Source: an uncultured Eubacteriaceae bacterium (lineage in GTDB: Bacteria > Bacillota > Clostridia > Eubacteriales > Eubacteriaceae). Taken from it: DNA of 64,000 nucleotides. The stretch lies in assembly GCA_937872065.1 (NCBI GenBank), contig CALMRA010000288.1, forward strand, positions 4,817 to 68,816, written 5' to 3'. Positions 37,701 to 55,674 of this stretch are shown piece after piece; positions within the stretch are counted from its first letter, which is position 1; every line of letters starts with the position of its first letter. Under the pieces are notes generated by a model, which was not told the DNA's origin, searched no databases, and saw nothing but the letters and a program-made list of their open reading frames with translations. The translations under genes were made by a program, and so were the position numbers.

Positions 37701-37735
37701 AATGTGAATTGAACGGACAATTCAGGGGAGCAGGG

Positions 37736-38983: not shown

Positions 38984-38993
38984 AGGCGGAAGC

Positions 38994-40343: not shown

Positions 40344-40619
40344 ATGACGAATGAAGCATTAGGCATGATTGAAACCAAAGGTCTTGTCGGCTCGATTGAA
40401 GCCGCAGATGCTATGGTTAAATCAGCCAATGTCGTACTGACAGGCTACGAAAAAATAGGTTCGGGGCTTGTCACGGTTTTCGTCCGCGGCGATGTCGGTG
40501 CCGTAAAAGCGGCAGTTGACGCAGGCGCGGCGGCAGCCGACAAAGTCGGCCAGGTTGTTTCAGTTCACGTTATTCCCAGACCGCATCAGGACGTTGAAAG
40601 TATGTTACCGAGCTTCTAA
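40344..40619 (+). CDS. pduA: BMC-H shell protein (PduA/PduJ-type)
   Basis: 91 aa. [26 protein letters not shown] is the canonical BMC (Pfam00936-type) start. GGAGGA RBS. Confidence 0.9.
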
Positions 40620-40643
40620 AGCTTAAATAAACGGAGGTGTAAG

Positions 40644-41429
40644 ATGAAAGACGATTTAATGCAGAAACTGATGGAAGAAGTTATGGCAAAAATGGATGAA
40701 GCCGAATCAACAGGGACTGTAGCTCCGGCGACAGGCGTCTGCGGACTGACCGAATACATCGGTACGGCAGTCGGCGACTCGATCGGTTTTGTTATCGCAA
40801 ATGTAGACAGCCAGCTTCACGAAGCCATGAAGATCGACCCGAAATACCGTTCGATCGGCATCCTGTCCGCACGTACAGGCGCAGGCCCGCAGGTCTTCGC
40901 AGCTGATGAAGCGGTTAAAGCCACCAACACGGAAGTCGTTTCTGTAGAATTCGCACGTGATACAAAAGGCGGAGCCGGCCACGGTTCTCTGATCATTTTC
41001 GGCGCGGAAGACGTTTCCGATGCGAAGCGCGCTGTCGAAGTCGCTCTGAACGACCTGAACAGAACGTTCGGCGATGTTTACGGCAACGATGCAGGCCATC
41101 TTGAATTCCAGTACACAGCAAGAGCTTCTTTCGCATGCAACACAGTATTCGGCGCTCCGATCGGCCGTGCTTTCGCAATCGTCGTAGGCGCTCCGGCCGG
41201 TATCGGCGTTCTGATGTCAGATACGGCTCTTAAAGCTGCAAACGTGGATCTCATCGGCTACATGTCACCGGACAACGGCGGCACAAAGTATTCAAACGAA
41301 GCAATTATCTCTGTCTCCGGCGACGCAGGTGCCGTACGCCAGGCTGTTTACGCTGCCAGAGAAGTCGGCAAACAGGCGCTCGAAGCTCTTGGCGGACCCT
41401 GCCCGTCTACCACGACTCCTTATATCTAA
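40644..41429 (+). CDS. pduB: tandem-domain BMC-T shell protein (PduB-type)
   Basis: 261 aa with two permuted BMC repeats and an N-terminal amphipathic extension. Sits between pduA and pduC as in known pdu operons. Confidence 0.9.
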   Translation: MKDDLMQKLMEEVMAKMDEAESTGTVAPATGVCGLTEYIGTAVGDSIGFVIANVDSQLHEAMKIDPKYRSIGILSARTGAGPQVFAADEAVKATNTEVVSVEFARDTKGGAGHGSLIIFGAEDVSDAKRAVEVALNDLNRTFGDVYGNDAGHLEFQYTARASFACNTVFGAPIGRAFAIVVGAPAGIGVLMSDTALKAANVDLIGYMSPDNGGTKYSNEAIISVSGDAGAVRQAVYAAREVGKQALEALGGPCPSTTTPYI

Positions 41430-41473
41430 GCAATAGAGTAATCAGACTGTTCGTGTAAACAAGAGGAGAAAAT

Positions 41474-43135
41474 ATGAGATCCAAAAGATTTGAAGCACTG
41501 GACGCCCGTCCGATAAAAAAAGACGGTTTCGTTAAAGAATGGCCTGAAGTCGGTCTGATTGCGATGAACAATCCCGGAGATCCGACTCCGAGTCTGACAA
41601 TTGAAAACGGCGTTATCGTAGAACTCGACGGCAAGAAGCGCGAAGACTTCGATATGCTCGACCAGTTCATCGCGGATCACGGCATCCGTCTCGAAAGAGC
41701 TGAAGAAGCGATGGCGATGTCCTCGCTCGATATCGCAAATATGCTCGTAGACTTCAACGTTCCGCGTTCAGAAGTCGTCGATATTACAACGTCCATCACA
41801 CCGGCTAAGATCACCGAAGTCATGGGCCTGATGACAGTACTTGAAATGATGATGGCCCAGACAAAGATGCGTTCGCGTCTGATGCCGTCAAACCAGTGCC
41901 ACGTTACCAACGTCAAGGACAACATGGTACAGATCGCCGCAGATGCGGCGGAAGCTGCGATCCGCGGATTCGACGAAATGGAAACGACAGTCGGTGTCGC
42001 CCGTTACGCACCGTTCAACGCTCTGGCTATCATGGTTGGCGCGAACGTAGGCCGTCCGGGTATCCTGACTCAGTGCGCAGTCGAAGAAGCGACAGAACTT
42101 GACCTCGGTATGAGAGGCTATACGGCTTATGCGGAAACCATTTCTGTATACGGCACAGAACCTGTCTTCATGGACGGCGATGATACTCCGTATTCGAAGG
42201 CGTTCCTCGCAAGCTGCTACGCTTCCCGCGGCCTGAAGATGCGTTTCACATCCGGTACCGGTTCCGAAGTCCAGATGGGCTATGCGGAAGGCAAGTCGAT
42301 GCTGTATCTCGAAGCGAGATGCCTGTACATCACGAAGGGTGCCGGCGTTCAGGGAACACAGAACGGTTCCGTCTCCTGCATCGGCGTACCGGCCGGCGTA
42401 CCCGGCGGTATCCGTGCGGTCCTCGCAGAAAACCTCATCGCAGCCTGCCTCGACCTCGAATGCGCATCTTCGAATGACCAGACGTTCACTCACTCCGACC
42501 TCAGAAGAGTCGCCCGTTCGATGATGCAGATGGTTCCGGGCACAGACTATATCTGCTCCGGTTACTCATCCACTCCGAACTACGACAACATGTTCGCGGG
42601 CTCCAACTGGGATGCAGAAGACTACGACGACTGGAACGTTATCCAGCGTGACCTTAAGATCGACGGCGGCCTGCAGCCTGCCGATGAAGAAACTGTCGTT
42701 GCGGCGCGTGCGAAAGCAGCCCGTACGATGCAGACCATCTTCAGAGAACTCGGTCTTCCTGAAATCAAAGATGAAGAAGTCGAAGCGGCTACGTACGCTA
42801 ACGGCTCTAAAGATATGCCGGACCGCGATGTCGTCGCCGACCTGAAAGCCGCCGATGAACTGCTCGCGAGAGGCGCTACGGCTGTCGACTTTGTCAAGGC
42901 TCTCGACCGCGGCGGAATCCCGGACGTTGCGCATTCACTGTACAACATCCTTATTACCAAAGCGGCAGGCGACTACCTCCACACAGCTTCCATGCTTTCT
43001 TCCGACTGGGAAGTTATCTCTGCGGTCAACTATCCGAATACGTATCACGGCCCGCAGACCGGTTACCAGATCAGCGATGAAAGATGGCAGGAAATGCAGG
43101 ATATTCCGTGGGCAATCGACCCGGAAAGCGTATAA
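41474..43135 (+). CDS. pduC: B12-dependent diol dehydratase large subunit
   Basis: N-terminus MRSKRFEALDARPIKKDGFVKEW is almost identical to the characteristic PduC/DhaB1 start. 553 aa. Confidence 0.97.
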   Translation: MRSKRFEALDARPIKKDGFVKEWPEVGLIAMNNPGDPTPSLTIENGVIVELDGKKREDFDMLDQFIADHGIRLERAEEAMAMSSLDIANMLVDFNVPRSEVVDITTSITPAKITEVMGLMTVLEMMMAQTKMRSRLMPSNQCHVTNVKDNMVQIAADAAEAAIRGFDEMETTVGVARYAPFNALAIMVGANVGRPGILTQCAVEEATELDLGMRGYTAYAETISVYGTEPVFMDGDDTPYSKAFLASCYASRGLKMRFTSGTGSEVQMGYAEGKSMLYLEARCLYITKGAGVQGTQNGSVSCIGVPAGVPGGIRAVLAENLIAACLDLECASSNDQTFTHSDLRRVARSMMQMVPGTDYICSGYSSTPNYDNMFAGSNWDAEDYDDWNVIQRDLKIDGGLQPADEETVVAARAKAARTMQTIFRELGLPEIKDEEVEAATYANGSKDMPDRDVVADLKAADELLARGATAVDFVKALDRGGIPDVAHSLYNILITKAAGDYLHTASMLSSDWEVISAVNYPNTYHGPQTGYQISDERWQEMQDIPWAIDPESV

Positions 43136-43147
43136 GGGGGAGTCAAG

Positions 43148-43819
43148 ATGGCTATCAATGAACAGATGCTCCAGAGCATTATTGAAGAAGTTTTAAGAGA
43201 AATGGGGACCTCCCAGCCCGCTGCCGATGCTCCGGCAGCAGCGCCGGCTGAATCGGCAGCGGCAGCGGCCGAATCTGTAGAACTTAAGCCGGAAGGCGAA
43301 GTGAAGCAGGGAACCGCTTCAGATGAAGTACTGATCGGACTCGCGCCGGCTTTCGCCGAATTCCAGACTGAAACGATTATCGGTATTCCGCACTCAAAGG
43401 TTCTCAAGGAACTCATCGCCGGTATCGAAGAAGAAGGACTCAAAGCCAGAGTCATCAAGGTATACAGAAGCTCCGACGTCGCCGTCTGCGGACACGATGC
43501 AGCCGAACTTTCCGGTTCGGGCGTCGCGATCGGGATCCAGTCCAAGGGCACCGCGCTGATCCATCAGAAGGATCTGCCGCAGCTGTCAAACCTCGAACTG
43601 TTCTCACAGGCACCGCTCATCGACCTCGACACCTACCGTGCGATCGGCAAAAATGCCGCTAAATACGCCAAGGGCGAATCACCGAGCCCTGTTCCGGTCA
43701 AAAACGACCAGATGGCGCGTCCGGCATATCAGGCGAAGGCTGCTCTGCTTCATATCAAGGAAACAGAACACGTCGTACCTGGCAAGAAGCCGGTCGAAAT
43801 GGAAGTAATTTTCAAATAG
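43148..43819 (+). CDS. pduD: diol dehydratase medium subunit
   Basis: 223 aa. Follows pduC. N-terminal amphipathic helix plus Ala/Pro linker, then the conserved beta-subunit core. Confidence 0.93.
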
Positions 43820-43825
43820 GAGACG

Positions 43826-44344
43826 ATGAACATGACTCAGGAACAGATGCTTGAACAGATCGTCAAACAGGTAATGGCCGCAATGGGCAGCGAACAGCCT
43901 GCACAGACCTGCGCTCCGTCAACGGGAGACAAGGTCACGGCTGCCGACTATCCGATTGCAGACAAACGCCCGGATCTGATCAAAACCGCTACAGGCAAAA
44001 ATTTCACTGATTTATCATATGAAAAAGTTATTAATGGCGAACTGAAACCGGAAGACCTGCGTATCCGTCCGGAAACGCTCGAACTTCAGGCGGAAGTCGC
44101 GGAATCCGTACAGCGCGGAGCCTTCGCAGGCAATCTGAGAAGAGCTGCGGAACTGATCGCAGTCCCGGATGCCCGTCTTCTCGAAATCTACAACGCGCTG
44201 CGTCCGTATAAATCCACAAAGGAAGAATACGAAGCGATCGCCGTTGAACTCGAAACACAGTACAATGCGCCGATCTCGGCAGGCCTTGTCAGGGAAGCTG
44301 CCGCAATCGGCTATAAGAGAAAGAGAACGAAGGAATTCAAGTAG
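43826..44344 (+). CDS. pduE: diol dehydratase small subunit
   Basis: 172 aa, at the third position of the dehydratase triplet, with an N-terminal amphipathic extension. Confidence 0.9.
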   Translation: MNMTQEQMLEQIVKQVMAAMGSEQPAQTCAPSTGDKVTAADYPIADKRPDLIKTATGKNFTDLSYEKVINGELKPEDLRIRPETLELQAEVAESVQRGAFAGNLRRAAELIAVPDARLLEIYNALRPYKSTKEEYEAIAVELETQYNAPISAGLVREAAAIGYKRKRTKEFK

Positions 44345-44399
44345 TCTGATTTAATCTGATTAATCAGAACGGCTGAATATAATGATTCGGGAGGAAAAA

Positions 44400-46223
44400 A
44401 TGATTGTAGCAGGTATAGACATCGGCAATGCGAGCACTGAAACGGCGCTTGCTCGATGCGAAAACGGGACCACAGATTTCCTCGCCAGCGGCATCGTCGC
44501 TACGACAGGGATGAAGGGGACCCGCCAGAATATACACGGCGTATTTGCCTCCCTCAAACAAGCTCTTGAAAAGGCCGGCATGACAGAAAAGGATGTCGAC
44601 CTGATCCGGATTAACGAAGCTGCGCCGGTCATCGGGGACGTGGCGATGGAGACGATCACAGAAACCATCATCACCGAATCCACGATGATCGGGCACAATC
44701 CGTCCACACCGGGCGGACTGGGCACCGGCACCGGGATTACGATCGATATCCGCAATATCGGTCAGTCGAAGCCCGGAGATGCCGTTATCGTAATCATACC
44801 CAGAGAGGTCGATTTCGAAAGCTCTTCACAGATGATAAACGAAGCGATGAGCCGGGGGATTCATGTCAACGGAGCCATCGTCCAGAGAGACGACGGCGTG
44901 CTGATCAACAACCGGATCAAGAAGGTCATCCCGATCGTCGACGAAGTCAAGCTGATTGAAAAGGTTCCGAGAGGAATGAAGGCTGCCGTAGAGGTCGCGT
45001 CTCAGGGACGGGTCGTCGAGCAGCTGTCGAATCCATACGGAATCGCGACGGTATTCGATTTGAGTTCCGACGAAACGAAGCAGGTCGTACCGATATCAAG
45101 AGCGCTGATTGGAAACAGGTCCGCGGTCATAATCAAGACTCCCGCGGGAGACGTTAAAGAACGCAAGATTCCCGCCGGGAAGATTATTATTCAGGGCGAA
45201 AACAAGAAAGCGGAAGTCAATGTCGACGACGGAGCGCAGACCATTATGGATGCGATCCGCAGTGTCGCTCCGATCGAAGACATTTCAGGAGAACCGGGAA
45301 CCAATGCCGGCGGAATGCTCGAACGTGTCCGTCAGGTCATGGCGAATCTGACAAACCAGAATCCGAGCCATATTCAGATCCAGGATCTGCTGGCGGTCGA
45401 TACCTTCGTACCGCAGACAGTCACCGGAGGCATGGCGGAAGAATTTTCGATGGAAAACGCTGTCGGAATCGCCGCGATGGTTAAGGCTGACAAGCTGCAG
45501 ATGAACATGATCGCCCGCGAGCTCGAAAAAGAGCTCGGCGTGAAGGTGGAAGTCGGCGGCGTTGAAGCGGATATGGCGATTCGGGGCGCCCTTACGACAC
45601 CCGGAAGCGCGAAACCGCTGGCGATTATCGATATGGGCGCAGGCTCAACCGACGCGGCGATTATCAACAAGGCCGGTCAGATTCATTCGATTCATCTGGC
45701 CGGAGCCGGAAACATGGTCACGATGCTTATCGGATCCGAACTCGGATTCGAGGACAGCGGGATTCCGGAGGACATCAAGAAGTATCCGCTTGCAAAGGTT
45801 GAAAGTCTGTTCCACATCCGTCATGAAGACGGAACGGTCCAGTTTTTCGATTCGCCGCTGAGTCCGGACGTTTTCGCAAAGGTCGTTATTCTGACGCCGA
45901 ACGGCATGGTTCCGATTCCCGGACAGAATTCGCTCGAAAAAATCAGAACAGTCCGCCGTGAAGCAAAAGAAAAAGTATTTGTGATGAACGCGATTCGTTC
46001 GCTGGAAAAGGTTTCTCCGACCGGAAATATACGCGATATGGAATTTGTAACGCTTGTCGGCGGTTCCGCGCTGGATTTTGAAATCCCGCAGCTCGTAACC
46101 GACGCGCTTTCAAAATTCAGCATCGTCGCAGGACGAGCCAACATACGCGGAGTCGAAGGACCGAGAAACGCCGTTGCCACAGGTCTTGTTCTGGCCTACT
46201 GTGCGGAAGGTGACGAAAAATGA
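44400..46223 (+). CDS. pduG: diol dehydratase reactivase large subunit
   Basis: MIVAGIDIGNASTETALA actin-fold start typical of PduG/DdrA. ATG 44400 lies 5 nt after GGGAGG. Confidence 0.93.
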   Translation: MIVAGIDIGNASTETALARCENGTTDFLASGIVATTGMKGTRQNIHGVFASLKQALEKAGMTEKDVDLIRINEAAPVIGDVAMETITETIITESTMIGHNPSTPGGLGTGTGITIDIRNIGQSKPGDAVIVIIPREVDFESSSQMINEAMSRGIHVNGAIVQRDDGVLINNRIKKVIPIVDEVKLIEKVPRGMKAAVEVASQGRVVEQLSNPYGIATVFDLSSDETKQVVPISRALIGNRSAVIIKTPAGDVKERKIPAGKIIIQGENKKAEVNVDDGAQTIMDAIRSVAPIEDISGEPGTNAGGMLERVRQVMANLTNQNPSHIQIQDLLAVDTFVPQTVTGGMAEEFSMENAVGIAAMVKADKLQMNMIARELEKELGVKVEVGGVEADMAIRGALTTPGSAKPLAIIDMGAGSTDAAIINKAGQIHSIHLAGAGNMVTMLIGSELGFEDSGIPEDIKKYPLAKVESLFHIRHEDGTVQFFDSPLSPDVFAKVVILTPNGMVPIPGQNSLEKIRTVRREAKEKVFVMNAIRSLEKVSPTGNIRDMEFVTLVGGSALDFEIPQLVTDALSKFSIVAGRANIRGVEGPRNAVATGLVLAYCAEGDEK

Positions 46224-46576
46224 ACGTCAGCTTCGAATCGCCCAGGCCTGAGATCAAGATATACTGGGAAACCGGAACGGATATGCGCGCCGTAAGCGAG
46301 ATCCTCAGAGGAATCGAAGAAGAAGGCGTTCCCGCGACGACCGAAGAACGAGAAAACGTAGAAAACGCGGTGGTACTCGCGTATAAAGCGGCAGAAGCTT
46401 CACATCTCGGAGTCGGAATCGGCATCGCCGATACGATCGCACTTCACTTTATCAAGCTTCAGGAAGACGCACCGCTTTTCCAGATCGGTCTTACAGCGGA
46501 TTCGGACAGGCTTCGCGCCATCGGATCCAACGCAGCCAGGCTGGTCAAGCACATGCCCTTCAAGAGCATTGACTGA
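46220..46576 (+). CDS. pduH: diol dehydratase reactivase small subunit
   Basis: 118 aa. ATGA overlap with pduG. Position and size match PduH/DdrB. Confidence 0.85.
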   Translation: MNVSFESPRPEIKIYWETGTDMRAVSEILRGIEEEGVPATTEERENVENAVVLAYKAAEASHLGVGIGIADTIALHFIKLQEDAPLFQIGLTADSDRLRAIGSNAARLVKHMPFKSID

Positions 46577-46592
46577 ATTCAGGAGAAACGCA

Positions 46593-46958
46593 TTGAAAGA
46601 TGCACTGGGACTTATTGAAGCAATAGGTCTTGCCACTGCATATGAAGCAGCCGATGCTGCCATGAAAGCCGCTAACGTCAAGCTGCTGGGCTTCGAGCCC
46701 TGCAGAGGAGACGGGATGCATACAATTAAGGTGACTGGAGGCGTCGAAGCTGTCAAAGCCGCGGTAGCGGCAGCGCAGGCTGCAGGCTCCAGAGGCAGAG
46801 GCGTTTTTTCAGCAGTGGTCATTGCAAGACCTTCTGAGGGAATAATGCCTCTTGTCAGTAACAGCGCAACCTTCGGATGCAGAAAGCAGGATCAAGAGCA
46901 GATCTCTGAAACCGACGAGACAGCCCCGGGAACTGCCGAAGAGAAACCTGAAGCATAA
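46593..46958 (+). CDS. pduK: BMC-H shell protein with acidic C-terminal extension (PduK-like)
   Basis: The BMC domain starts at LKDALGLIEAIGLATAYEAADAAMKAANV. TTG 46593 lies 7 nt after AGGAG; the ORF-track start TTG 46569 would overlap pduH. About 35-aa tail after the BMC fold. Confidence 0.75.
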   Translation: MKDALGLIEAIGLATAYEAADAAMKAANVKLLGFEPCRGDGMHTIKVTGGVEAVKAAVAAAQAAGSRGRGVFSAVVIARPSEGIMPLVSNSATFGCRKQDQEQISETDETAPGTAEEKPEA

Positions 46959-46987
46959 CGGACTGTTTGAGGAAAGGAGTTCTGCAG

Positions 46988-47647
46988 ATGACAGAGAATG
47001 AACGTGCGGTAATTGAGCAGATTGTGATGAACACAGTCAAAAAGCTCCTTGCAGAACGCGACGCACCGACAAGGATCCCGCTCGGGGTCTCGAATAAGCA
47101 CATCCATCTGACACAGGAGGACGTAGAGATCCTGTTCGGGGAAGGCCATACGCTTACTCCGATCAAGGATCTGGGTCAGCCCGGTCAGTTTGCATGTGAA
47201 GAATGTATCGATCTGGAAGGACCGAAAGCCGTGATGAAACATGTTCGCGTGCTCGGACCTGCCAGAGCGGAGACACAGATTGAAATTTCCATGACGGATG
47301 CCAGGACCCTCGGGATCAAGGCGCCTGTCAGAGAATCGGGCTGTCTGGCGGATACGCCCGGGATTACGCTCGTCGGACCCGAAGGATCCATCGAGCTTAC
47401 CCACGGCGTGATCGTCGCGCTCAGGCATATTCATATGCCGCCCGATATTGCGGAACAGCTCGAACTGAACGACGGAGACAGCGTCTTTGTCGAAACGAGC
47501 GGTATCCGCCCGACGCTGTTCAGGAACGTGCTCGTCAGAGTTTCACCCAATTATTCGTATGAAATGCATATCGATACGGACGAAGCCAACGCAGCCGGAC
47601 TGAAAAACGGAGATATATTAAAACTCATTAAGCAGGTTGAATTGTAA
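46988..47647 (+). CDS. pduL: phosphate propanoyltransferase
   Basis: PduL repeats IPLGVSNKHIHLTQEDVEILFG and VIVALRHIHMPPDIAEQL. ATG 46988 after AAAGGAG. Confidence 0.9.
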   Translation: MTENERAVIEQIVMNTVKKLLAERDAPTRIPLGVSNKHIHLTQEDVEILFGEGHTLTPIKDLGQPGQFACEECIDLEGPKAVMKHVRVLGPARAETQIEISMTDARTLGIKAPVRESGCLADTPGITLVGPEGSIELTHGVIVALRHIHMPPDIAEQLELNDGDSVFVETSGIRPTLFRNVLVRVSPNYSYEMHIDTDEANAAGLKNGDILKLIKQVEL

Positions 47648-48468
47648 TGGACTGGAAAAGCGGCAACGACGTTATCCTGGAGTTTGACGAACTGATTAAA
47701 AGCGGAAAAGCCCGGCCTCATACCGGTCCGCTCAAAATAGGCGTCGACCTCGGGACAGCAAATATCGTTCTGGCAGCCGTCGATCAGGAGAACAGACCTG
47801 TCGCCGGCGTTACGCGACGCGCATCTGTCGTCCGCGACGGAATCGTTGTGGACTATATGGGCGCTGTCAGCATTGTCAGACAGCTCAAGGCGGAGCTCGA
47901 AGACATCCTCGGTGAAAGCCTTGATTTCGCCAATGCCGCGACAGCGATTCCGCCGGGAATTCTCGAAGGCAACGCGAAGATCATCGCGAACGTCGTCGAC
48001 TCGGCAGATTTTAACGTTACCAACGTCGTGGACGAACCGACGGCGGCAGCGACTGTTCTCGGAATCAGGAACGGCGCGGTTGTCGATGTCGGCGGCGGTA
48101 CGACGGGCATTTCGATCCTGAAGGATGGAGAAGTTGTCTTTACGGCGGACGAACCGACAGGGGGGACTCATATGAGTCTGGTGATCGCCGGAAACAAAAA
48201 GATCAGCTTCGACGAAGCGGAAGAGATTAAAATTCACGACGATCAGCGGGTCGTTTTCCCGATTATCAAGCCGGTCGTCGAAAAGATGGCTTCGATCGTT
48301 CACCGTTTTATACAGGGCTACGATGTGGATACGATATACGTCGTAGGCGGCGCCTGTGAATTCGACAGATTCGAACAGGTTTTCGAACGCGAAACGGGGA
48401 TCAAGACGATCAAGCCGGTGGAACCGCTTCTGGTAACGCCGCTCGGCATCGCATTCAACTGCAGATAG
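47647..48468 (+). CDS. eutJ: EutJ-like actin/Hsp70-fold chaperone
   Basis: Actin-fold phosphate loops IGVDLGTANIV and VVDVGGGTTGISI. 273 aa. TAATG overlap with pduL. Confidence 0.85.
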   Translation: MDWKSGNDVILEFDELIKSGKARPHTGPLKIGVDLGTANIVLAAVDQENRPVAGVTRRASVVRDGIVVDYMGAVSIVRQLKAELEDILGESLDFANAATAIPPGILEGNAKIIANVVDSADFNVTNVVDEPTAAATVLGIRNGAVVDVGGGTTGISILKDGEVVFTADEPTGGTHMSLVIAGNKKISFDEAEEIKIHDDQRVVFPIIKPVVEKMASIVHRFIQGYDVDTIYVVGGACEFDRFEQVFERETGIKTIKPVEPLLVTPLGIAFNCR

Positions 48469-48477
48469 GAGTGCCGA

Positions 48478-49356
48478 TTGGATATACAGGCAATTTTAGA
48501 TAATAAACAGCTGATGGACGCCTTTATCCGGCAGATCGCCGACGAGGTGATCCGACGGCTCGCGAACAAGCCGAAGACGGCACTCGTGGTGTTCTCGGGA
48601 GCGGCGATCGGCTTCTCTCAGGAACTGAAGGCGCTCACGCAGCTTGCCGACGAAGGCTGGCAGTTCAAGGTCTTTCTGTCGGACGCCGCGATGTCGATCT
48701 TTACACCGGATATGATCCAGGAAAAGCTCGGTGCGGATCAGATTTTCCACGCCGGGATTCGCTACAATCAGAAGGATCTGTACGCAGGCGTAGACAAGAT
48801 TATCATCGCGTCGACGACTGTGAACACGGCTGCGAAGATTGCAAACGGGATCTGCGACAACGATCTGCTCACTCTCGTGAATCACGGGCTGATGGCGGGA
48901 ACGGAAACGATCTGCTCTGTCAACGGCGCGTGCCCGGATGATCCGGAACGTGCGAAGCTCGGCATGGGCGTCTCGCCTCCGGGTTACAGGCAGATGCTCA
49001 GGGACAACCTGGCGAAGATGCAGAGCTTCGGGATCAGATTGTGTACGGCGGACAGGCTCTACGATACGTGCAGAGACGAGGATGCTCAGGATCAGGCGCA
49101 GCAGTGCGCGGCTCCGGTGCAGACAGAATCCGCACCGGTCGTTCAGGCTGCTCCGGAACCGAAACCGGAACCCGTCAAAGCTGAAATCGCAGCGGATCAG
49201 GGGGCGACGGTCAGACTGGATAAACATGTGATCAGCAACCGGGATATTCGGGCGAACCGGATAAGCCGGGTGATCGAAGTACCTTCCGACGCCCTGGTAA
49301 CTCAGAGCGCGGCGGATACGATGCGGGAACTGGGCATTGCGCTCAGAAGGATCTAG
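48478..49356 (+). CDS. PduM-position protein with an embedded flavoprotein-like domain
   Basis: 292 aa. N-terminal amphipathic helix, then IIASTTVNTAAKIANGICDNDLLT, which resembles the Dfp/HFCD flavoprotein motif. A Pro/Ala/Gln linker follows, then a C-terminal VISNRDIR...VTQSAADTMRELGIAL segment. TTG start after AGGAG. The PduM assignment rests on gene order and terminal segments only. Confidence 0.5.
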   Translation: MDIQAILDNKQLMDAFIRQIADEVIRRLANKPKTALVVFSGAAIGFSQELKALTQLADEGWQFKVFLSDAAMSIFTPDMIQEKLGADQIFHAGIRYNQKDLYAGVDKIIIASTTVNTAAKIANGICDNDLLTLVNHGLMAGTETICSVNGACPDDPERAKLGMGVSPPGYRQMLRDNLAKMQSFGIRLCTADRLYDTCRDEDAQDQAQQCAAPVQTESAPVVQAAPEPKPEPVKAEIAADQGATVRLDKHVISNRDIRANRISRVIEVPSDALVTQSAADTMRELGIALRRI

Positions 49357-49365
49357 GAGGCGGAT

Positions 49366-49644
49366 ATGCATTTAGCAAAAGTTGTCGGAAATGTCGTCTC
49401 TACGCAGAAGGATCCGAATCTCGTAGGCTGCAAGCTTCTGATCATAAAAAAGATTAACGAAAACGGCGAGTTTGAAAAATACTCGAGTCAGTCTACTGCG
49501 ATCGCGGTAGACAGCGTAGGCGCGGGCATCGGAGAAACAGTTATCGTCACGACGGGCTCAACAGCCCGTTATGTATACGGCGACAAGCTTGCTCCGCTCG
49601 ATATGACAATTGTCGGCATTGTCGATGAAATACAGATTGTGTAG
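49366..49644 (+). CDS. pduN: BMC-P pentameric vertex protein (PduN/EutN/CcmL family)
   Basis: 92 aa. MHLAKVVGNVVSTQKDPNLVGCKLLII is the typical EutN/CcmL start. Confidence 0.9.
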   Translation: MHLAKVVGNVVSTQKDPNLVGCKLLIIKKINENGEFEKYSSQSTAIAVDSVGAGIGETVIVTTGSTARYVYGDKLAPLDMTIVGIVDEIQIV

Positions 49645-49651
49645 GTAAGCT

Positions 49652-50662
49652 ATGCCGAATGTCTATACGAGAACCGGAGATAAAGGCACGACAGGCCTTT
49701 TCGGAGGAGCAAGAACACCGAAAAACGATATCCGGGTCGAAGCCTACGGCACAATGGATGAAGCGAACGCCTCTATCGGCTGGGCAAAATCCATTATCGA
49801 AGACGAAGCGATCCGGGATATCCTGAACGGGATTCAGAAACGGATATTCGTCCTCGCGGCGGAACTGGCAAGCGATGCAAAGGGCAAGGAAATGCTCGCT
49901 GACAAAATCAGTCAGAAGGATGTCGACGAACTGGAACATCAGCTCGACAAATATCTGGCTGTAGTCGGAAAGCAGAAAGATTTCGTCGTACCCGGAGCAA
50001 ATCCGTCATCCGCAGCTCTGCATCAGGCACGGACTGTGGTCAGACGGGCGGAACGAAGGATCATCGATTATTCGGATCAGGAAACGGTCAGACCGGAACT
50101 GATCAAATATGCCAACAGACTTTCGGATCTGCTGTTCGTTCTCGCCAGAATGGAAGAATATAACGACACCGTAAGACAAGTCACCAGAAAAGTCGAAGAA
50201 GTACTGAAAAAACAGGGGATACAGACACCGACGGAAGACATTATAGACAAACCCCGGATCAATATCCTGACCCTTGCGAAACGGATGGCGCACGCTTCCA
50301 GACTGCGCGCGGCAGAACTCGGCATTCCGATCGTGTTCTCCGCAGTGGATAAGCATGGAAATCTCGTCTATCTCGAACGTGAGGAGGATTCACTTCTTGC
50401 GAGCATCGATATCGCCCGTAAAAAAGCTTATACGGCGGCAGCGCTTAAGACGCCCACCGACAAGCTTGCGGAGCTTTCCAAAGAAGACGGCGCACTGTTC
50501 GGTCTGCCCTTTACGAGCGACGGAGAGTACGTAATTTTCGGCGGCGGCTATCCGATCGTCATAAACGGAGAGATCATCGGCGCGATTGGTGTATCGGGGG
50601 GGACGGCAGAAGAAGATATGCAGATTGCTTCTGCCGGTCTTACGGTACTGGACAGGATATAG
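49652..50662 (+). CDS. pduO: PduO-type ATP:cob(I)alamin adenosyltransferase fused to a DUF336/GlcG-like domain
   Basis: N-terminus VYTRTGDKGTTGLFGG is the PduO-type ATR signature. The C-terminal roughly 140 aa (IVFSAVDKHGNLVY ... GGGYPI ... IGAIGVSGG) match the heme-binding DUF336 module. Confidence 0.9.
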   Translation: MPNVYTRTGDKGTTGLFGGARTPKNDIRVEAYGTMDEANASIGWAKSIIEDEAIRDILNGIQKRIFVLAAELASDAKGKEMLADKISQKDVDELEHQLDKYLAVVGKQKDFVVPGANPSSAALHQARTVVRRAERRIIDYSDQETVRPELIKYANRLSDLLFVLARMEEYNDTVRQVTRKVEEVLKKQGIQTPTEDIIDKPRINILTLAKRMAHASRLRAAELGIPIVFSAVDKHGNLVYLEREEDSLLASIDIARKKAYTAAALKTPTDKLAELSKEDGALFGLPFTSDGEYVIFGGGYPIVINGEIIGAIGVSGGTAEEDMQIASAGLTVLDRI

Positions 50663-50671
50663 GAGAAAAAT

Positions 50672-52078
50672 ATGACTATCGATACTCAGGGTCTTGAGGC
50701 GATTATCAAAAAAGTCATGGACACCATCGATTTTGCAGAAGAAACCGGCCGTCCGCTGACAGACGGAAAAGACGGTATCTTCGAAGATATCGATGACGCG
50801 ATTGCAGCTGCCGCCAAAGCCCAGAAAGAGTACATGAAGCTGCCGATGGCGACGCGCACAAAGATTATCGACGCGATCCGCAAGGAGCTCGGCAAAAAAG
50901 AAAACATCGAAACGATCTGCAGCAAGGTCGTTGAAGAAACCGGTATGGGAGACTATGACTGCAAGCTGATCAAGCAGAAGCTCGTCGTAGATAAAACTCC
51001 CGGCGTCGAAGATCTCGTTACGGAAGCCTTCACAGGCGACGACGGACTGACGCTGGTGGAACTCTCACCATTCGGCGTAATCGGAGCGATCACACCGACG
51101 ACAAATCCGAACGAAACGATTATCTGCAATTCCATCGGCATGCTCGCGGCAGGCAATACGGTTGTATTCTCGCCGCATCCGCGCTCGATCGAATCCTCGC
51201 TGATAACGGTAAGACTTATTAATAAGGCCATCGCGGCAGCCGGCGGACCGGAACATCTGGTCAACACGACATCGAAGCCGTCGCTTGAAGCCAGCCAGAA
51301 GCTGATGAAGAATCCGGCGATCCGGATGCTCGTCGCTACAGGCGGTCCCGGCGTTGTTCACGCGGTTCTGTCAAGCGGCAAGAAAGCCATCGGAGCGGGG
51401 GCAGGCAATCCGCCTGTACTCGTAGATGAAACCGCCAATATTGAAAAAGCGGCGAAGGATATCATCGACGGCTGCAGCTTTGACAACAACCTGCCGTGCA
51501 TCGCGGAAAAGGAAGTCGTCGCGGTAGACCAGATTGCGGATTACCTGATCTTCAATATGAAGAAAAACGGCGCGTTCCAGATCACCGACAGAAAAGCGAT
51601 CGACAAGATTGCTGAAATGGTCTATCCGGGAAGTCTGAACCGCGATTTCGTCGGAAAGCCCGCGACCTATATCGCTGAAAAAGCCGGAATCGAAGTTCCG
51701 AAGGACACACGCGTTCTGATCATGGAAACGTCTAAGGATCATACCCTCGCAGTCGAAGAGCTGATGATGCCGATCCTTCCGATTGTCCGGGTCAGCGACG
51801 TCGACGAAGGAATCGATGTTTCCGTTGAGCTCGAACACGGCAACCGCCATACCGCGATGATGCATTCGCGCAACGTTGAAAAGCTCAACGAAATGGCAAA
51901 ACGCATTCAGACGACTATTTTTGTTAAGAACGGTCCGTCCTATGCCGGCATCGGCGTGGGCGGAGAAGGATACACGACGTTTACGATCGCCGGCCCCACA
52001 GGGGAAGGTCTCACCTCGGCGAAGGCGTTCGCACGCAAGAGAAGATGCGTCCTCGTAGGCGCGTTCAACGTTCGCTGA
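50672..52078 (+). CDS. pduP: CoA-acylating propionaldehyde dehydrogenase
   Basis: 468-aa aldehyde dehydrogenase fold with a catalytic-Cys context FDNNLPCIAEKE and an N-terminal amphipathic targeting-like helix. Confidence 0.9.
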   Translation: MTIDTQGLEAIIKKVMDTIDFAEETGRPLTDGKDGIFEDIDDAIAAAAKAQKEYMKLPMATRTKIIDAIRKELGKKENIETICSKVVEETGMGDYDCKLIKQKLVVDKTPGVEDLVTEAFTGDDGLTLVELSPFGVIGAITPTTNPNETIICNSIGMLAAGNTVVFSPHPRSIESSLITVRLINKAIAAAGGPEHLVNTTSKPSLEASQKLMKNPAIRMLVATGGPGVVHAVLSSGKKAIGAGAGNPPVLVDETANIEKAAKDIIDGCSFDNNLPCIAEKEVVAVDQIADYLIFNMKKNGAFQITDRKAIDKIAEMVYPGSLNRDFVGKPATYIAEKAGIEVPKDTRVLIMETSKDHTLAVEELMMPILPIVRVSDVDEGIDVSVELEHGNRHTAMMHSRNVEKLNEMAKRIQTTIFVKNGPSYAGIGVGGEGYTTFTIAGPTGEGLTSAKAFARKRRCVLVGAFNVR

Positions 52079-52099
52079 AACGCCGGTTAGGAGAGAGTC

Positions 52100-53428
52100 A
52101 TGGGACAGAATCTCGTAGAACTGGCCCGCAGCGGTGGAATTGTCGGCGCCGGAGGCGCCGGCTTCCCCACGGCGGTCAAGCTTGATGCGACATGCGATAC
52201 CGTTATCGTAAACGGCGCGGAATGCGAACCTCTGCTTCGTGTGGACCAGCAGCTGATGGTTGACAAAGCGGAAGAAATGCTTGAAACGCTGGCGGCAGTC
52301 GTCGAACAGACGGGTGCGAAGGAAGGCGTGGTCGGACTGAAGAAGAAGTACGTTCCGGCGATCAATAAGCTTAATACGCTCCTTCCGAAATATCCGAAGC
52401 TGCGTCTTTTTATTCTGGAAAATTTCTATCCGGCCGGAGACGAACAGACACTGGTTTACGAAGTGACAGGAAAGAGCGTTCCGGAAGGCGGGATCCCGCT
52501 TAATGTGGGCGCGCTCGTCATCAACGTCGAAACACTGCTTAACCTGTACAACATGGCAGAGTATGATAAGCCGGTTATCGATTCGTATATTACGGTGACG
52601 GGAGCAGTCAGAAATCCGGTCACGGTGCTTGTTCCGATTGGCATCACGGTTCGCGAAGCCCTCGAGCTTGCCGGCGGACCGACCATCGACGATTACGCCG
52701 TGATAAACGGCGGCCCGATGATGGGAAAGATCGTCAGTCCGGATTCTCAGATTACAAAGACGACAAAGGGGCTGATCGTACTGCCGAAGGATGCCCGTGT
52801 GATCGAATCAAAGACGAGACCGGTCTCCCGGTCGATTCGTGATGCGGCGTCCGCGTGCATGCAGTGCTCGCTGTGCTCGGAGGTCTGTCCGCGCCACAGG
52901 CTCGGTCATAATCTCGAACCGCACAAGCTGATGAGAATAGCGGCTTACGGGAATACGCTTGACAGACAGGCCCTCGCGACGACGGCGTTTTTGTGCTGCG
53001 ACTGCGGACTTTGCCAGTATGCCTGCGTCATGGATCTGCAGCCCTGGAAGTTCAATCAGGAGTTGAAGCGCCAGTTCGGAGCTGCCGGAGTCAGAAATCC
53101 TCACCACAGCAGCGACGTACATGCGATTCGTTTCGCGGATACCCACCGTTTTGATGTGCACAGACTGATCTCACGTCTCGGGCTCGCCCGCTACGACGTG
53201 CCGGCTCCGATGATTCCGGACCGTCTTGATTACACCACCGTTTCGATCCCGCTGTCTCAGCATATCGGTGCTCCGTCGACGCCTGTCGTAAGTGTCGGCG
53301 ATACTGTCACGCGCGGTCAGCTTATCGGAGACATTCCGGAAGGAAAGCTCGGAGCGAAAATATTCGCCAGTATTGACGGAACGGTCACGGACATCAGCGG
53401 TAACAAGATAACGATCAGCGCAGCATAG
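52100..53428 (+). CDS. pduS: cobalamin reductase, RnfC-like Fe-S flavoprotein
   Basis: GGAGFPTAVKL nucleotide motif and two 4Fe-4S motifs, CMQCSLCSEVCP and CCDCGLCQYAC. 442 aa. Confidence 0.85.
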   Translation: MGQNLVELARSGGIVGAGGAGFPTAVKLDATCDTVIVNGAECEPLLRVDQQLMVDKAEEMLETLAAVVEQTGAKEGVVGLKKKYVPAINKLNTLLPKYPKLRLFILENFYPAGDEQTLVYEVTGKSVPEGGIPLNVGALVINVETLLNLYNMAEYDKPVIDSYITVTGAVRNPVTVLVPIGITVREALELAGGPTIDDYAVINGGPMMGKIVSPDSQITKTTKGLIVLPKDARVIESKTRPVSRSIRDAASACMQCSLCSEVCPRHRLGHNLEPHKLMRIAAYGNTLDRQALATTAFLCCDCGLCQYACVMDLQPWKFNQELKRQFGAAGVRNPHHSSDVHAIRFADTHRFDVHRLISRLGLARYDVPAPMIPDRLDYTTVSIPLSQHIGAPSTPVVSVGDTVTRGQLIGDIPEGKLGAKIFASIDGTVTDISGNKITISAA

Positions 53429-53444
53429 GGCAGGAGATTTTATT

Positions 53445-53993
53445 GTGAAAAAAGCATTAGGATTTATCGAATTCAAAACAATTCCGGTAGGTATCGAAGC
53501 GACTGACGAAATGCTAAAATCCGGAAACGTTGAGCTCGTCACATCGACTCCGATCTGCCCCGGCAAATTTATGACGATTATTTCCGGCGATGTCGGAGCC
53601 GTACAGTCTTCGATCAAAACCGGAGAACGGATCGGAGATTCATACGTGATCGATGCGTACATGATCTCCAATATCAATGAAAAAGTCATGCCGGCGCTGA
53701 CAGGAACGATGCCGATGCCGGAGATCGAATCTCTCGGAATGGTCGAAACGATCGACGGGATCTCTTCGATTCTTGCGGCGGATGCGGCGGCGAAGGCTTC
53801 GAACATCGAACTGATCGAGATCAGGATCGCACGCGGTCTCGGCGGGAAAGCGTATTTTATCGTGACCGGGGAAGTATCGTCGGTCAAACGGGCGATTCAG
53901 GCGGCGATCGATGTGCTCAAGGAAACCAGCAGCATTACGAGCCACACTGTTATCGCGCGTCCGCATAAGGATCTGAAAAATATACTCGCATGA
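53445..53993 (+). CDS. pduT: tandem-domain BMC-T shell protein with pore cysteine (PduT-type)
   Basis: 182 aa with two BMC repeats. Cys38 in TSTPICPGKF is at the position that ligates the pore 4Fe-4S cluster in characterised PduT. GTG start after AGGAG. Confidence 0.85.
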   Translation: MKKALGFIEFKTIPVGIEATDEMLKSGNVELVTSTPICPGKFMTIISGDVGAVQSSIKTGERIGDSYVIDAYMISNINEKVMPALTGTMPMPEIESLGMVETIDGISSILAADAAAKASNIELIEIRIARGLGGKAYFIVTGEVSSVKRAIQAAIDVLKETSSITSHTVIARPHKDLKNILA

Positions 53994-54000
53994 ACATTTC

Positions 54001-54022
54001 GGCTCAGGCTTCCACCTGAGCC
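54001..54022 (+). terminator. hairpin after pduT without a proper U-tract (leaky terminator or processing site)
   Basis: 8-bp stem ggctcagg / cctgagcc with a 6-nt loop, followed by gttctgctt rather than a T-run. Confidence 0.4.
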
Positions 54023-54093
54023 GTTCTGCTTATCAGCCGCTTCACGAATGATGACGGACATCGGTGAAACTGCTGACGCAGAAAGGAAACTCG

Positions 54094-54864
54094 ATGAAAA
54101 CCATTAGCTTTTTCAATTTAAAAGGCGGATGCGGAAAGACCACGTCTCTGATCAATCTGGGATGGCTTCTTGCGCAGCGGGAGGCGAAAACAGGCGGACG
54201 GGTGCTTCTGATCGACGCGGACATGCAGAGCAATCTGACAAATTCGATTCTCGACTACGATACGAAAAGACACAGTATTTACGATGTCATGACGGGCAGA
54301 CGCGCCGCGCAGGAGGTGATCCTGCCGGTGCGGGATAATGTCGATCTGATCCCGTCGAGTCTGATGATGGCAGCGATCGAGCCGAAGCTTGACAGCGCCA
54401 GAAATAAGGCGTGGATACTTGAAGAGGCGCTGATACCGCTGCAGGACCGTTATTCCTACTGCCTGATAGACTGCTCGCCGTCGTTCAGCACGATGACGAT
54501 AAACGCGATCCTGGCATCTGAACTGATTTTTATACCTGTTCAGACTGAATATTATGCCGTAGACGGTGTACATTTACTAGAGGAAACCCTCTCCTATATT
54601 AATCAGCAATATGGATTGAATAAACAGATTGACTGTATATTCGCATCGATTCACGATAAGCGGAACAACATCAACAAGCTGCAGTACGAAAGCCTGACGG
54701 AAAACTTTCCGGATAAGTTTATGAAGACGGCGGTTAGAAAAAATGTTGCGCTCGTTGAGTCACCGGTTTTCAGAGAATCCATATTCGAATATAAACCATC
54801 TTCAACGGGAGCAGAGGACTACCGAAACCTGTTTAAAGAAATTGAAGAAAAGGGAGAATTCTAA
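54094..54864 (+). CDS. ParA/Soj-family deviant Walker-A ATPase (orphan, no ParB partner)
   Basis: FFNLKGGCGKTT (includes the signature Lys), LLIDADMQSNLT, YCLIDCSPS and IPVQTEYYAVDG align along their whole length with Soj as I remember it. ATG 54094 after GAAAGGA; the ORF-track start 54064 is a GTG. Confidence 0.9.
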   Translation: MKTISFFNLKGGCGKTTSLINLGWLLAQREAKTGGRVLLIDADMQSNLTNSILDYDTKRHSIYDVMTGRRAAQEVILPVRDNVDLIPSSLMMAAIEPKLDSARNKAWILEEALIPLQDRYSYCLIDCSPSFSTMTINAILASELIFIPVQTEYYAVDGVHLLEETLSYINQQYGLNKQIDCIFASIHDKRNNINKLQYESLTENFPDKFMKTAVRKNVALVESPVFRESIFEYKPSSTGAEDYRNLFKEIEEKGEF

Positions 54865-55586
54865 TGGCTGCGAAGAAAAATCTTAAAAACAAACTGGACC
54901 AGCATAACAAGGAAATCAAGAGCAGCAGCGAACTCAACGATCGTCTGGCTGCCGATATTCCAGAAACCGGTCAGGAAGCGCAGGAAGGTCTGTATACGGA
55001 TTCTGTCGAAGCTGCGGATACGCTGGAATCTACGGGAGATACGACACAGTGGCAGCGGCAGAATTCGGCTGAATCTGAAACCGATGCTGCCGTAGAAGAC
55101 GATATGGTCGCGCATCCGGAAGCGGCGGATACTGACAGACCGACCATTCAGTCGCCGGATTCGAAACAGACGCTCAAAGAAGCGGAAGAAGGACTTGGCT
55201 CAGCTCAGGCCGCGGCTTCCGATATTCTTGAATCCACTGGTGACACGACACAGTGGCAGCGCCAGAATTCTGCGGAATCGGTCACGGACGAAGCGGTCGA
55301 AGTGACGATGGATGAAGAAACGCTCAAACGCAGGGCAGTCGAACAGGCGAAATCCATACCTGAAACCGACAGACTGCATTCGGATATTCCGGAAACCCGC
55401 AGGGAAGCTGAAGAAGCCGTGCGGGTGGACAATGTCGAAGCGGATATCGATATCGAAGCGACCGGAGACGTGACGGAATGGCAGGATGCCGGCGCAGAAG
55501 AAGCGGAAACCGACGCGGCAGTCGAAGTGACGGAAACGAAGCCTAAAAGACATGTCAAGGACGACCTGCCGGATTACCTGCTCTGA
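54864..55586 (+). CDS. acidic, Trp-repeat, low-complexity protein; candidate ParA adaptor
   Basis: 240 aa. TAATG overlap with the ParA gene. Lys-rich N-terminus MAAKKNLKNKLDQHNKEIK, three Asp/Glu/Thr-rich repeats, basic C-terminus KPKRHVKDDLPDYLL. Synonymous-only divergence between repeats argues it is translated. No recognisable domain. Confidence 0.75.
   Translation: MAAKKNLKNKLDQHNKEIKSSSELNDRLAADIPETGQEAQEGLYTDSVEAADTLESTGDTTQWQRQNSAESETDAAVEDDMVAHPEAADTDRPTIQSPDSKQTLKEAEEGLGSAQAAASDILESTGDTTQWQRQNSAESVTDEAVEVTMDEETLKRRAVEQAKSIPETDRLHSDIPETRREAEEAVRVDNVEADIDIEATGDVTEWQDAGAEEAETDAAVEVTETKPKRHVKDDLPDYLL
54939..55526 (+). repeat. three intragenic peptide repeats (about 42-53 aa) with a [ST]GD-x-T-x-WQ core
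   Basis: Repeat A 54939-55097, B 55176-55301, C 55368-55526. LESTGDTTQWQRQNSAES is identical in A and B, and IEATGDVTEWQDAGAEEA is the C version. DRLxxDIPET leads A and C. Confidence 0.85.
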
Positions 55587-55602
55587 TTTTTATTGAAGAC
55601 TG

Positions 55603-55636
55603 CAGCTTCCCGGATAACCGGGAGGCTGTTTTTTTT
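55603..55636 (+). terminator. strong terminator closing the ParA-adaptor unit
   Basis: 11-bp stem cagcttcccgg / ccgggaggctg (one G-U pair) with a 4-nt loop, followed by T8. Confidence 0.9.
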
Positions 55637-55674
55637 ATGCTTCTCTTTGTTATACTAAGAGCACAGGAGGAAGC

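Follow-up and report, generated by a model that had tools for sequence, protein, structure and literature searches.

Downstream of a complete propanediol-utilization (pdu) operon in an uncultured Eubacteriaceae bacterium, a gene for a ParA-type ATPase is followed by a second gene for a small, strongly acidic protein, which raises the question of what this protein does beside the operon and which of its parts do it. The DNA analyzed is a stretch of 64,000 nucleotides (contig CALMRA010000288.1, positions 4,817 to 68,816; hereafter the window). We assign the protein, with a probability of about 0.6, as an McdB-like partner (hereafter the adaptor) of the ParA/McdA-like ATPase, the two genes forming a module that would position or partition the Pdu bacterial microcompartment (BMC). 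The gene order, the translational coupling of the pair, the conservation of the adaptor's modules, the selection on the repeats and the predicted disorder of the adaptor are direct observations. The adaptor and its parts are located as follows:

54864-55586, + strand: open reading frame (ORF) of the putative McdB-like adaptor, 723 nt, 240 amino acids (aa), predicted to be disordered
54864-54956, + strand: N-terminal basic tip, MAAKKNLKNKLDQHNKEIK..., predicted helix over aa 1-31 (predicted local distance difference test score, pLDDT, 74-80; motif in 10/11 partners; likeness to the first 20 residues of alpha-McdB)
54939-55115, + strand: repeat unit A, aa 26-84, with its tryptophan core (W-core) at aa 54-78 (55023-55097)
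55176-55301, + strand: repeat unit B, aa 105-146, with its W-core at aa 122-146 (55227-55301) and no DIPET leader
55368-55526, + strand: repeat unit C, aa 169-221, with its W-core at aa 197-221 (55452-55526)
55539-55583, + strand: C-terminal tail, KPKRHVKDDLPDYLL, a basic patch followed by [DE][LM]Px[YF]LL-COOH (11/11 ParA-linked partners; agrees with the C-terminal Tyr/Phe rule for McdB-like proteins of PDU microcompartments and of those associated with a glycyl radical enzyme, GRM)

A first-pass annotation of this DNA had described a protein with a basic N-terminus, three acidic repeats built around tryptophan and a basic, aromatic C-terminus, and all of the features it listed, including the termini, the Trp positions, the DRLxxDIPET leaders and a duplicated block, were recovered as stated. 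The N-terminus reads MAAKKNLKNKLDQHNKEIK and the C-terminus KPKRHVKDDLPDYLL. The adaptor contains 61 Asp and Glu residues versus 24 Lys and Arg residues, with a net charge of -37 and an isoelectric point (pI) of 4.2; charged residues account for 35% of the chain, and the first 20 aa carry a net charge of +4. The only Trp residues are those at positions 63, 131, and 206, each within [ST]GD-x-T-x-WQ. Specifically, W63 and W131 lie in TGDTTQWQ (aa 57 and aa 125, respectively), and W206 lies in TGDVTEWQ (aa 200). Units A and C open with DRLxxDIPET (aa 26 and aa 169, respectively), a leader that unit B lacks, as the annotation had implied. The conserved core is longer than the 18-residue block the annotation had delimited: it reaches about 25 aa, with the consensus LE-TGD-T-WQ-----AE-ETDAAVE.

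The disorder and charge analysis that the annotation had proposed placed the adaptor among predicted disordered proteins. Its AlphaFold2 model has a mean pLDDT of 50.9 and a predicted template modeling score (pTM) of 0.15, and one of the shorter relatives described below as orphans gave a pLDDT of 49.3, the pTM over both models ranging from 0.12 to 0.15. The mean hydropathy of 0.389 falls below the Uversky boundary of 0.469, on the disordered side of the charge-hydropathy plot. In the models, each repeat unit appears as a helix, a break at TGD and a second helix, while the tip (aa 2-31) is the most confident helix of the adaptor, with a pLDDT of 74-80. Neither the adaptor nor its long relatives match any family in Pfam or NCBIfam (E <= 0.01), and a profile of the repeat unit searched against PDB sequences yielded only a chance match (E = 1.6). 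These searches (Pfam, NCBIfam, E <= 0.01) found no ParB, helix-turn-helix (HTH), or ribbon-helix-helix (RHH) domain in the adaptor. The pI of 4.2 makes DNA binding implausible, and a ParB-like centromere binder was rejected for an acidic protein without a DNA-binding domain. A secreted or cell-wall protein was likewise rejected, since the N-terminus lacks a hydrophobic signal core.

The repeats bear a clear record of selection. Two copies of the 18-aa block LESTGDTTQWQRQNSAES are present (aa 54-71 and aa 122-139), with differences in 9 of the 18 codons. These are exactly the differences that the first-pass annotation had reported, and every one is synonymous. By the Nei-Gojobori method, the copies show 9 differences over 12.7 synonymous sites (proportion of synonymous differences, pS, 0.71, saturated) and none over 41.3 non-synonymous sites. 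Nine random changes would all be synonymous with a probability of 1.5e-6; a transition bias of 4 raises this to 1.3e-5. The saturation of silent changes combined with the lack of non-synonymous ones indicates an old duplication and strong purifying selection on the peptide, and the all-synonymous pattern identifies the + frame as the one translated. The annotation had argued for the same three points (selection on the peptide, no recent DNA duplication, a truly translated frame), and the ratio of 9/12.7 to 0/41.3 sustains them. A recent DNA duplication or gene conversion is ruled out by the saturated synonymous sites, and the opposite-strand ORFs at 55200-55558 are ruled out because the pattern of synonymous changes fits the + frame alone.

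This selection extends to the relatives of the adaptor, here termed the W-repeat family. Compared with the orthologue at locus L007, the W-cores have the lowest proportion of non-synonymous differences in the gene (0.045-0.054), compared with 0.094 for the tip; the value for ParA is 0.125. Trp is retained in 28 of the 29 aligned repeat units of the family, an alignment from which unit B of the window was missed in extraction; unit B has the same core, including its Trp. The AE-x-ET[DN]AAV segment is nearly invariant across the aligned units. The homologue alignment that the annotation had proposed as a test did not refute its reading: the W core and, in 10/11 ParA-linked partners, the basic tip are conserved, and the repeat number varies from 2 to 5. 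Since the core of about 25 aa is under very strong purifying selection, each unit behaves like a true short linear binding motif.

The ATPase is encoded directly upstream of the adaptor:

54094-54864, + strand: ParA/Soj-like (McdA-like) ATPase, 256 aa (Pfam AAA_31 at 8e-45)

It contains a deviant Walker A motif, KGGCGKT, with the signature lysine, as well as the Walker A' and Walker B sequences LLIDAD and CLIDCSP, and most public copies are annotated at 256 aa. Against PDB sequences, ParA/Soj proteins score 4e-34 to 3e-29 and McdA (6NOO) 8e-14, with the full-length alignment to Soj structures at 5e-31. The segment HDKRNN is aligned to Soj's D-x-R, the arginine of which has a role in DNA binding; this gives an indication of possible ATP-dependent, non-specific DNA (nucleoid) binding. 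The protein belongs to a tight clade of about 45 clusters with 48-79% identity, beyond which identity drops sharply to 40% for generic Soj. The parA stop codon overlaps the adaptor start codon (TAATG), coupling the two genes in translation. ParA lies directly upstream of the adaptor at all 7 W-type loci where ParA is visible, and wherever the upstream DNA of a W-repeat locus is visible (6 loci), the order is PduT-ParA-partner, followed by dnaX. The overlapping codons and this order at 6/6 loci uphold the annotation's proposal that the protein is the partner of the adjacent ATPase. Including loci L024 and L026, whose partners are not of the W-type, PduT-ParA-partner recurs in 8 independent loci on the same strand.

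The gene downstream of ParA was compared in four clade members without a W-repeat partner:

L024: order PduT-ParA-partner; the partner is a KE/A-rich repeat protein
L026: order PduT-ParA-partner-dnaX; the partner has 417 aa with basic, AKP-rich, H1-like repeats and a net charge of +34
L025: no BMC genes within 6 kb; the partner has 48 aa
L027: no BMC genes within 10 kb upstream; the partner has 141 aa with a helical middle (~90 aa)

All four partners carry both the tip and the tail. The tip motif K-x-x-L-K-x-x-L is found in 10/11 ParA-linked partners, with K4 and L11 invariant and L7 and K8 nearly so, and the tail motif [DE][LM]Px[YF]LL-COOH in 11/11, with the Pro and both terminal Leu residues invariant. 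In the window, the tail ends as ...KDDLPDYLL, placing Y238 at position -3 and the DLPDYLL motif at 55566-55583. This invariant tail was overlooked in the first-pass annotation. The middles of the partners are unrelated, comprising W-acidic repeats (2-5 units), KE-rich repeats, basic AKP repeats, or nothing: the 48-aa partner of L025 consists of the tip and the tail alone. It represents the minimum for an adaptor with two binding sites and supports an adaptor with one site per end. An apparent loss of the tip in L011 (7336-7962) was rejected as the product of a mis-called gene start. The deposited start of P0039 lies 24 codons late, and an in-frame ATG overlapping the ParA stop codon adds the basic tip MGRNRKKKRSLKKSLAVARKR.

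Further features of the sister loci deserve mention. In L024 (6772-7571), single extra G residues within the repeat (AAAGGCTGAA versus AAAGCTGAA) break the gene of the KE/A-rich partner into two ORFs. Long-read assembly errors are the probable cause, with real frameshifts as the alternative. The L026 partner (6760-8013) carries about eight histone-H1-like, AKP-rich basic repeats with a weak Pfam HC2 match, and with its net charge of +34, direct binding to the nucleoid is conceivable. L024 (4289-5242) and L026 (4366-5280) have a DUF7973 gene between pduS and pduT that is absent from all W-type loci examined (the window, L001, L007, L009, and L011); in this small sample, its presence may co-vary with the type of adaptor.

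McdA/McdB-like pairs have been described adjoining PDU and GRM operons (MacCready 2021, PMC8359340 section 2.9, Fig. 8f; Basalla 2024, PMC11321042 Fig. 4), and the McdB-like proteins there carry Tyr or Phe in their last 4-5 residues, beside acidic residues, in place of the carboxysomal Trp (PMC8359340, PMC11321042). The pair in the window has the same arrangement of a ParA-type gene and then a small domain-less gene in or beside a BMC operon, and the same C-terminal Tyr/Phe. The adaptor has an adjacent ParA/McdA-like gene, an adjacent BMC operon, a positive N-terminus, predicted disorder with biased composition, and a C-terminal Tyr near acidic residues. It thus displays every McdB-like feature that a sequence can reveal, which argues that the adaptor assignment is right and also that it is not new as a kind: PDU McdB-like adaptors are an already predicted class. 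The published reports differ in that they describe only the C-terminal 10-20 residues and state that the invariant Trp is absent. Compared by their published description, they do not include internal Trp-acidic repeats, the tip-middle-tail plan, orphans or a 48-aa form.

The closest characterized parallel is the alpha-McdB of Halothiobacillus neapolitanus, which is similarly encoded directly downstream of a ParA-type ATPase, is nearly all disordered, and has a Lys-bearing N-terminal helix and a C-terminal aromatic motif (PMC12139897, PMC11321042). Its first 20 residues form this helix, which is necessary and sufficient for McdA binding (PMC12139897), and its last 10 aa are sufficient for carboxysome binding (PMC11321042). 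In contrast, it shows no detectable homology to the adaptor, the profile search having returned 8 clusters that all fall in the present clade. Its C-terminal motif is R(V/I)WPD instead of DLPxYLL, it measures about 10 kDa without a repeat array, and its cargo is the carboxysome, whereas the cargo here would be the Pdu metabolosome of a Gram-positive anaerobe. McdBs are only about 7% identical to each other, so missing homology does not decide membership in the class.

We infer the binding partners of each part, and the positioning function itself, from these comparisons. The tip is likely to be a ParA-docking helix that stimulates the ATPase or the release of ParA, given that its motif is conserved, that it is the best-predicted helix, that it is absent where ParA is absent, and that it parallels the alpha-McdB helix. 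The first-pass annotation had proposed that the N-terminus engages the ATPase, and the conserved motif, the predicted helix and the alpha-McdB parallel support this analogy. In the proposed mechanism, the Lys-rich amphipathic tip (~aa 2-31) would dock on the ATP-bound, nucleoid-bound ParA dimer and stimulate its ATPase or its release. A positive N-terminal peptide is a general means of contacting and stimulating ParA/MinD ATPases, as in ParB/Spo0J, ParG, MinE, and SopB. The adaptor shares this basic peptide with them and differs in having no ParB or HTH/RHH domain; for a protein of pI 4.2 a parS-type function is implausible, and the cargo would be proteinaceous.

By analogy with carboxysomal McdB, the tail, which is the second constant module of the ParA clade, may be the BMC shell anchor; published work on McdB indicates this element as the likely anchor (PMC11321042). 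We propose this tentatively, at slightly less than even odds, the main alternative being that the tail binds ParA or a general partner. The basic patch and DLPDYLL-COOH would anchor the adaptor to the shell in the manner of the carboxysomal aromatic-acidic motif, and in Synechococcus elongatus McdB, W-to-Y substitutions keep function (PMC11321042). The tail is a better shell-anchor candidate than the Trp repeats. The FtsZ C-terminal tail (E. coli DYLDIPAFLRKQAD; PMC4117426) has the core D-[IL]-P-x-[FY]-L in common with the adaptor tail, and both end a disordered linker. The FtsZ tail is a known docking peptide followed by basic residues, while the adaptor tail ends at the carboxyl terminus. 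This resemblance of sequences is a lead only and may be a chance similarity.

The distribution of the Trp repeats informs their role. The family is small: the profile search covered 1.84 billion representative proteins and retrieved 8 clusters, each of them in this clade, and all searches together (word-indexed, profile, and genome and metagenome contigs) yielded about 10 distinct relatives, all from Eubacteriaceae. The scan of the genome collection contributed 2 loci, the metagenome scan for further family members found nothing new, and a second word-indexed search for them gained only fragments. Family members have 2, 3, 4, or 5 units and range from 162 to 650 aa. The shortest of these lengths belongs to a natural in-frame deletion allele, P0002, of 162 aa, which has lost 234 nt and with them unit B:

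55141-55374, + strand: segment deleted in allele P0002, between two GACAGAC copies

The allele (L021, L022, and L023) is nucleotide-identical to the window outside the deletion and occurs in at least 3 metagenome samples. An assembly artefact was rejected, since the deletion is a clean 234 nt with 7-nt microhomology, recovered from 3 samples and 2 assembly pipelines.

At the other extreme, low-GC Eubacteriaceae (31-34% GC) encode orphan W-repeat proteins with two units only and with neither tip nor tail (P0006, P0007, and L008). Their genes all lie upstream of dnaX, on contigs of 4 kb or shorter:

L004, 169-735: orphan gene
L006, 385-957: orphan gene
L008, 1-492: orphan gene

No ParA was seen upstream of P0006 and P0007 (loci L004 and L006), and the L008 contig begins inside the gene. 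P0006 and P0007 have their own terminator and promoter upstream. Orphan-bearing assemblies are CANQNI01, SRR16767935, SRR16767936, and SRR16767943. The orphan of L006 directly follows an AraC-type regulator that is 84% identical, over the visible C-terminal 73 aa, to the Pdu regulator of the window, which indicates that this position lacks both the pdu operon and parA. Purifying selection acts on the orphans (dN/dS ~0.15) without ParA, tip, or tail, and the repeat module thus has some function independent of all three.

The model put forward in the first-pass annotation holds that the three Trp-acidic repeats grip the Pdu shell multivalently, with the tip binding ParA; the tail would then be secondary. 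The repeats do share the chemistry of the motif validated for shell binding in McdB, in which acidic residues flank a Trp (PMC11321042). Their cores resemble short linear motifs under extreme purifying selection within a fast-evolving disordered protein, their 2-5 copies would suit avidity for a polyvalent surface, and the orphans could coat the shell independently of ParA, in the manner of the alpha-McdB type 2 orphans, which similarly lack a charged N-terminus. The Trp-acidic cargo motifs of the kinesin-1 light chain system (PMC11321042) are likewise short, multi-copy, located in disordered regions, and link cargo to transport; that system is eukaryotic and unrelated, and the likeness is one of chemistry only. 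However, Trp repeats are missing from the partners that follow PduT-ParA in L024 and L026, of which one is strongly basic, even though the PduN identity reaches 98%; PduN of the window and PduN of L024 are 97-98% identical despite unrelated adaptor middles. In addition, the invariant element across the clade is the tail and not the repeats, a natural allele dispenses with unit B, the orphan locus lacks a pdu operon, and the 48-aa partner of L025 has no middle at all. These comparative data weaken the case for the Trp repeats as the cargo binder, and we consider the multivalent-grip model rather unlikely.

Under the preferred assignment, with one site at each end of the adaptor, the Trp repeats are a lineage-specific insert of variable copy number that is not needed for the generic adaptor job, since sister systems with nearly identical shell proteins manage without it. 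They are no passive spacer, as judged from the strong selection on them and the existence of the orphans. They may add multivalent contacts to the shell or to a BMC-associated protein. Alternatively, they may form a polyanionic brush, holding BMCs at a distance from one another and from the DNA. The data agree equally well with a polyelectrolyte brush in which a specific binding site is embedded and with extra shell contacts. A bolder possibility, which we regard as unlikely, is that the 25-aa Trp-acidic core is a previously undescribed, autonomous module that docks proteins multivalently on the exterior of Pdu-type BMCs or on a conserved BMC-associated partner. It would supply avidity in the adaptor and would serve as a ParA-independent surface coat or anti-aggregation factor in the orphans.

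Several observations weigh against reading the pair as a BMC positioning module. The L025 and L027 pairs have tip and tail but no BMC genes within 6-10 kb, so that the tail could serve ParA or a general cellular partner instead of the shell, and the lineage L001/P0005 retains ParA and the tail and has lost the tip. The orphans adjoin a Pdu-type regulator gene at a place without the pdu operon and ParA, which suggests a repeat function independent of the parA-adaptor module. The genes of all family members, orphans among them, directly precede dnaX(-ybaB-recR), and part of the conserved synteny is thus not BMC-specific. Furthermore, the ATPase is nearer to chromosomal Soj than to the structurally characterized McdA, and reviews to 2025 call PDU McdAB-like systems uncharacterized and without experimental support.

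Part of this evidence fits a different division of labor, in which tip and tail both serve ParA or a general partner and the variable middle sets the cargo; the W-repeats would be specific to Pdu, and other middles would be directed at different cargos or surfaces. The tail is conserved with or without adjacent BMC genes (L025, L027), the tip and the tail are missing exactly where ParA is missing, and the tip-less L001 lineage still combines ParA with the tail; the ~90-aa helical middle of L027 could be a folded cargo-binding domain, and the likeness of the tail to the FtsZ docking peptide D-I-P-x-F-L (PMC4117426) points the same way. However, the 48-aa partner of L025 would then have no cargo-binding part, and the middles of BMC-linked partners can be chemically opposite alongside nearly identical shell proteins. 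The L025 and L027 pairs may also serve BMC loci elsewhere in the genome, as does mcdAB of S. elongatus. We know of no ParA/MinD partner that uses a C-terminal aromatic peptide to bind the ATPase. Taken together, this division of labor appears quite improbable.

The similarity of the ATPase to chromosomal Soj, the position of every family member, orphans included, just upstream of dnaX-ybaB-recR and the occurrence of related pairs away from BMC genes would also be expected if the pair were unrelated to BMCs, that is, if it were a chromosomal ParA with a partner for DNA segregation or for nucleoid or replisome organization. This explanation is very improbable in view of the strongly acidic adaptor (pI 4.2) without HTH, RHH, or ParB domain, the 8 loci in which the pair directly follows pduT on the same strand, the PduT-ParA-partner arrangement of L024 without a downstream dnaX, and the lack of ParA where the pdu operon is absent. 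The assignment as an McdB-like partner in a Pdu positioning module is retained at the probability given above.

The surroundings of the pair in the window comprise the following features:

37709-40037: PocR-domain histidine kinase and AraC-type response regulator, upstream of the pdu operon (Pfam scans)
40344-53993, + strand: complete pdu operon (Pfam scans)
54000-54023, + strand: GC-rich hairpin GGCTCAGG...CCTGAGCC with a weak T tail, directly 3' of the pduT stop
55602-55639, + strand: strong intrinsic terminator closing the parA-adaptor unit before dnaX (12-bp stem, 8 GC pairs, T7 run; also delimited as 55602-55629)

The operon encodes a PduA-like BMC-H, a PduB-like protein, the diol dehydratase PduCDE, the reactivase PduGH, a further BMC-H, PduL, an EutJ-like actin-fold protein, a flavoprotein, PduN, a PduO-GlcG-like fusion, PduP, PduS, and PduT. 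The genes of the PduA-like and PduT shell proteins lie at 40344-40619 and 53445-53993. Pfam scans of 40344-53993 found neither pduU nor pduV. The EutJ-like protein (47647-48468) has Pfam matches to FtsA, MreB, and PilM, and the PduO adenosyltransferase is fused to a GlcG/HbpS-like domain (49652-50662). The vertex protein PduN (49366-49644), compared between the window and L001, L011, and L024, is 97-98% identical across lineages with only 60-77% identity in PduT and with unrelated adaptor middles, an unusually strong conservation of the pentamer gene or possibly a recent exchange. The position of the hairpin after pduT is kept in L007 and L011. It may be an attenuator or an RNA-stability element ahead of the parA-adaptor pair and, as an attenuator, may lower the expression of the pair relative to the shell and enzyme genes. 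Downstream of the unit lie dnaX-ybaB-recR, and the adaptor is the last gene of the chromosomal island. The GC content of the window is 53.8%, and no Rfam match was found anywhere in its 64 kb. PduV, a Ras-like GTPase, and PduK are the factors implicated in Pdu BMC positioning in Salmonella. They concern the same problem of Pdu spacing and inheritance and are unrelated proteins; here a ParA pair sits at the 3' end of the operon instead.

The spacing and inheritance of catabolic microcompartments (Pdu, Eut, and GRM) are essentially not understood. To our knowledge, ParA-based McdAB positioning has been demonstrated by experiment for carboxysomes only, with just passing bioinformatic remarks on PDU loci. 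Apparently unreported are the modular plan of this clade, the motifs defined for its tip and tail, the Trp-acidic module as an autonomous unit together with its orphans, and the natural variants, both deleted and minimal. The clade offers natural experiments in the form of swapped, deleted and minimal middles, a tip-less lineage, repeat-only orphans, and a within-species deletion allele. This comparative set makes it directly testable, with a handful of constructs, which peptide contacts the ATPase and which one the shell. The DLPxYLL tail and the Trp-acidic core are candidate portable tags for the Pdu shell exterior, of use for BMC engineering in gut and acetogenic Firmicutes. If the Trp-acidic core does dock on the shell, it would be the first defined metabolosome shell-docking motif, and one that is portable for engineering.

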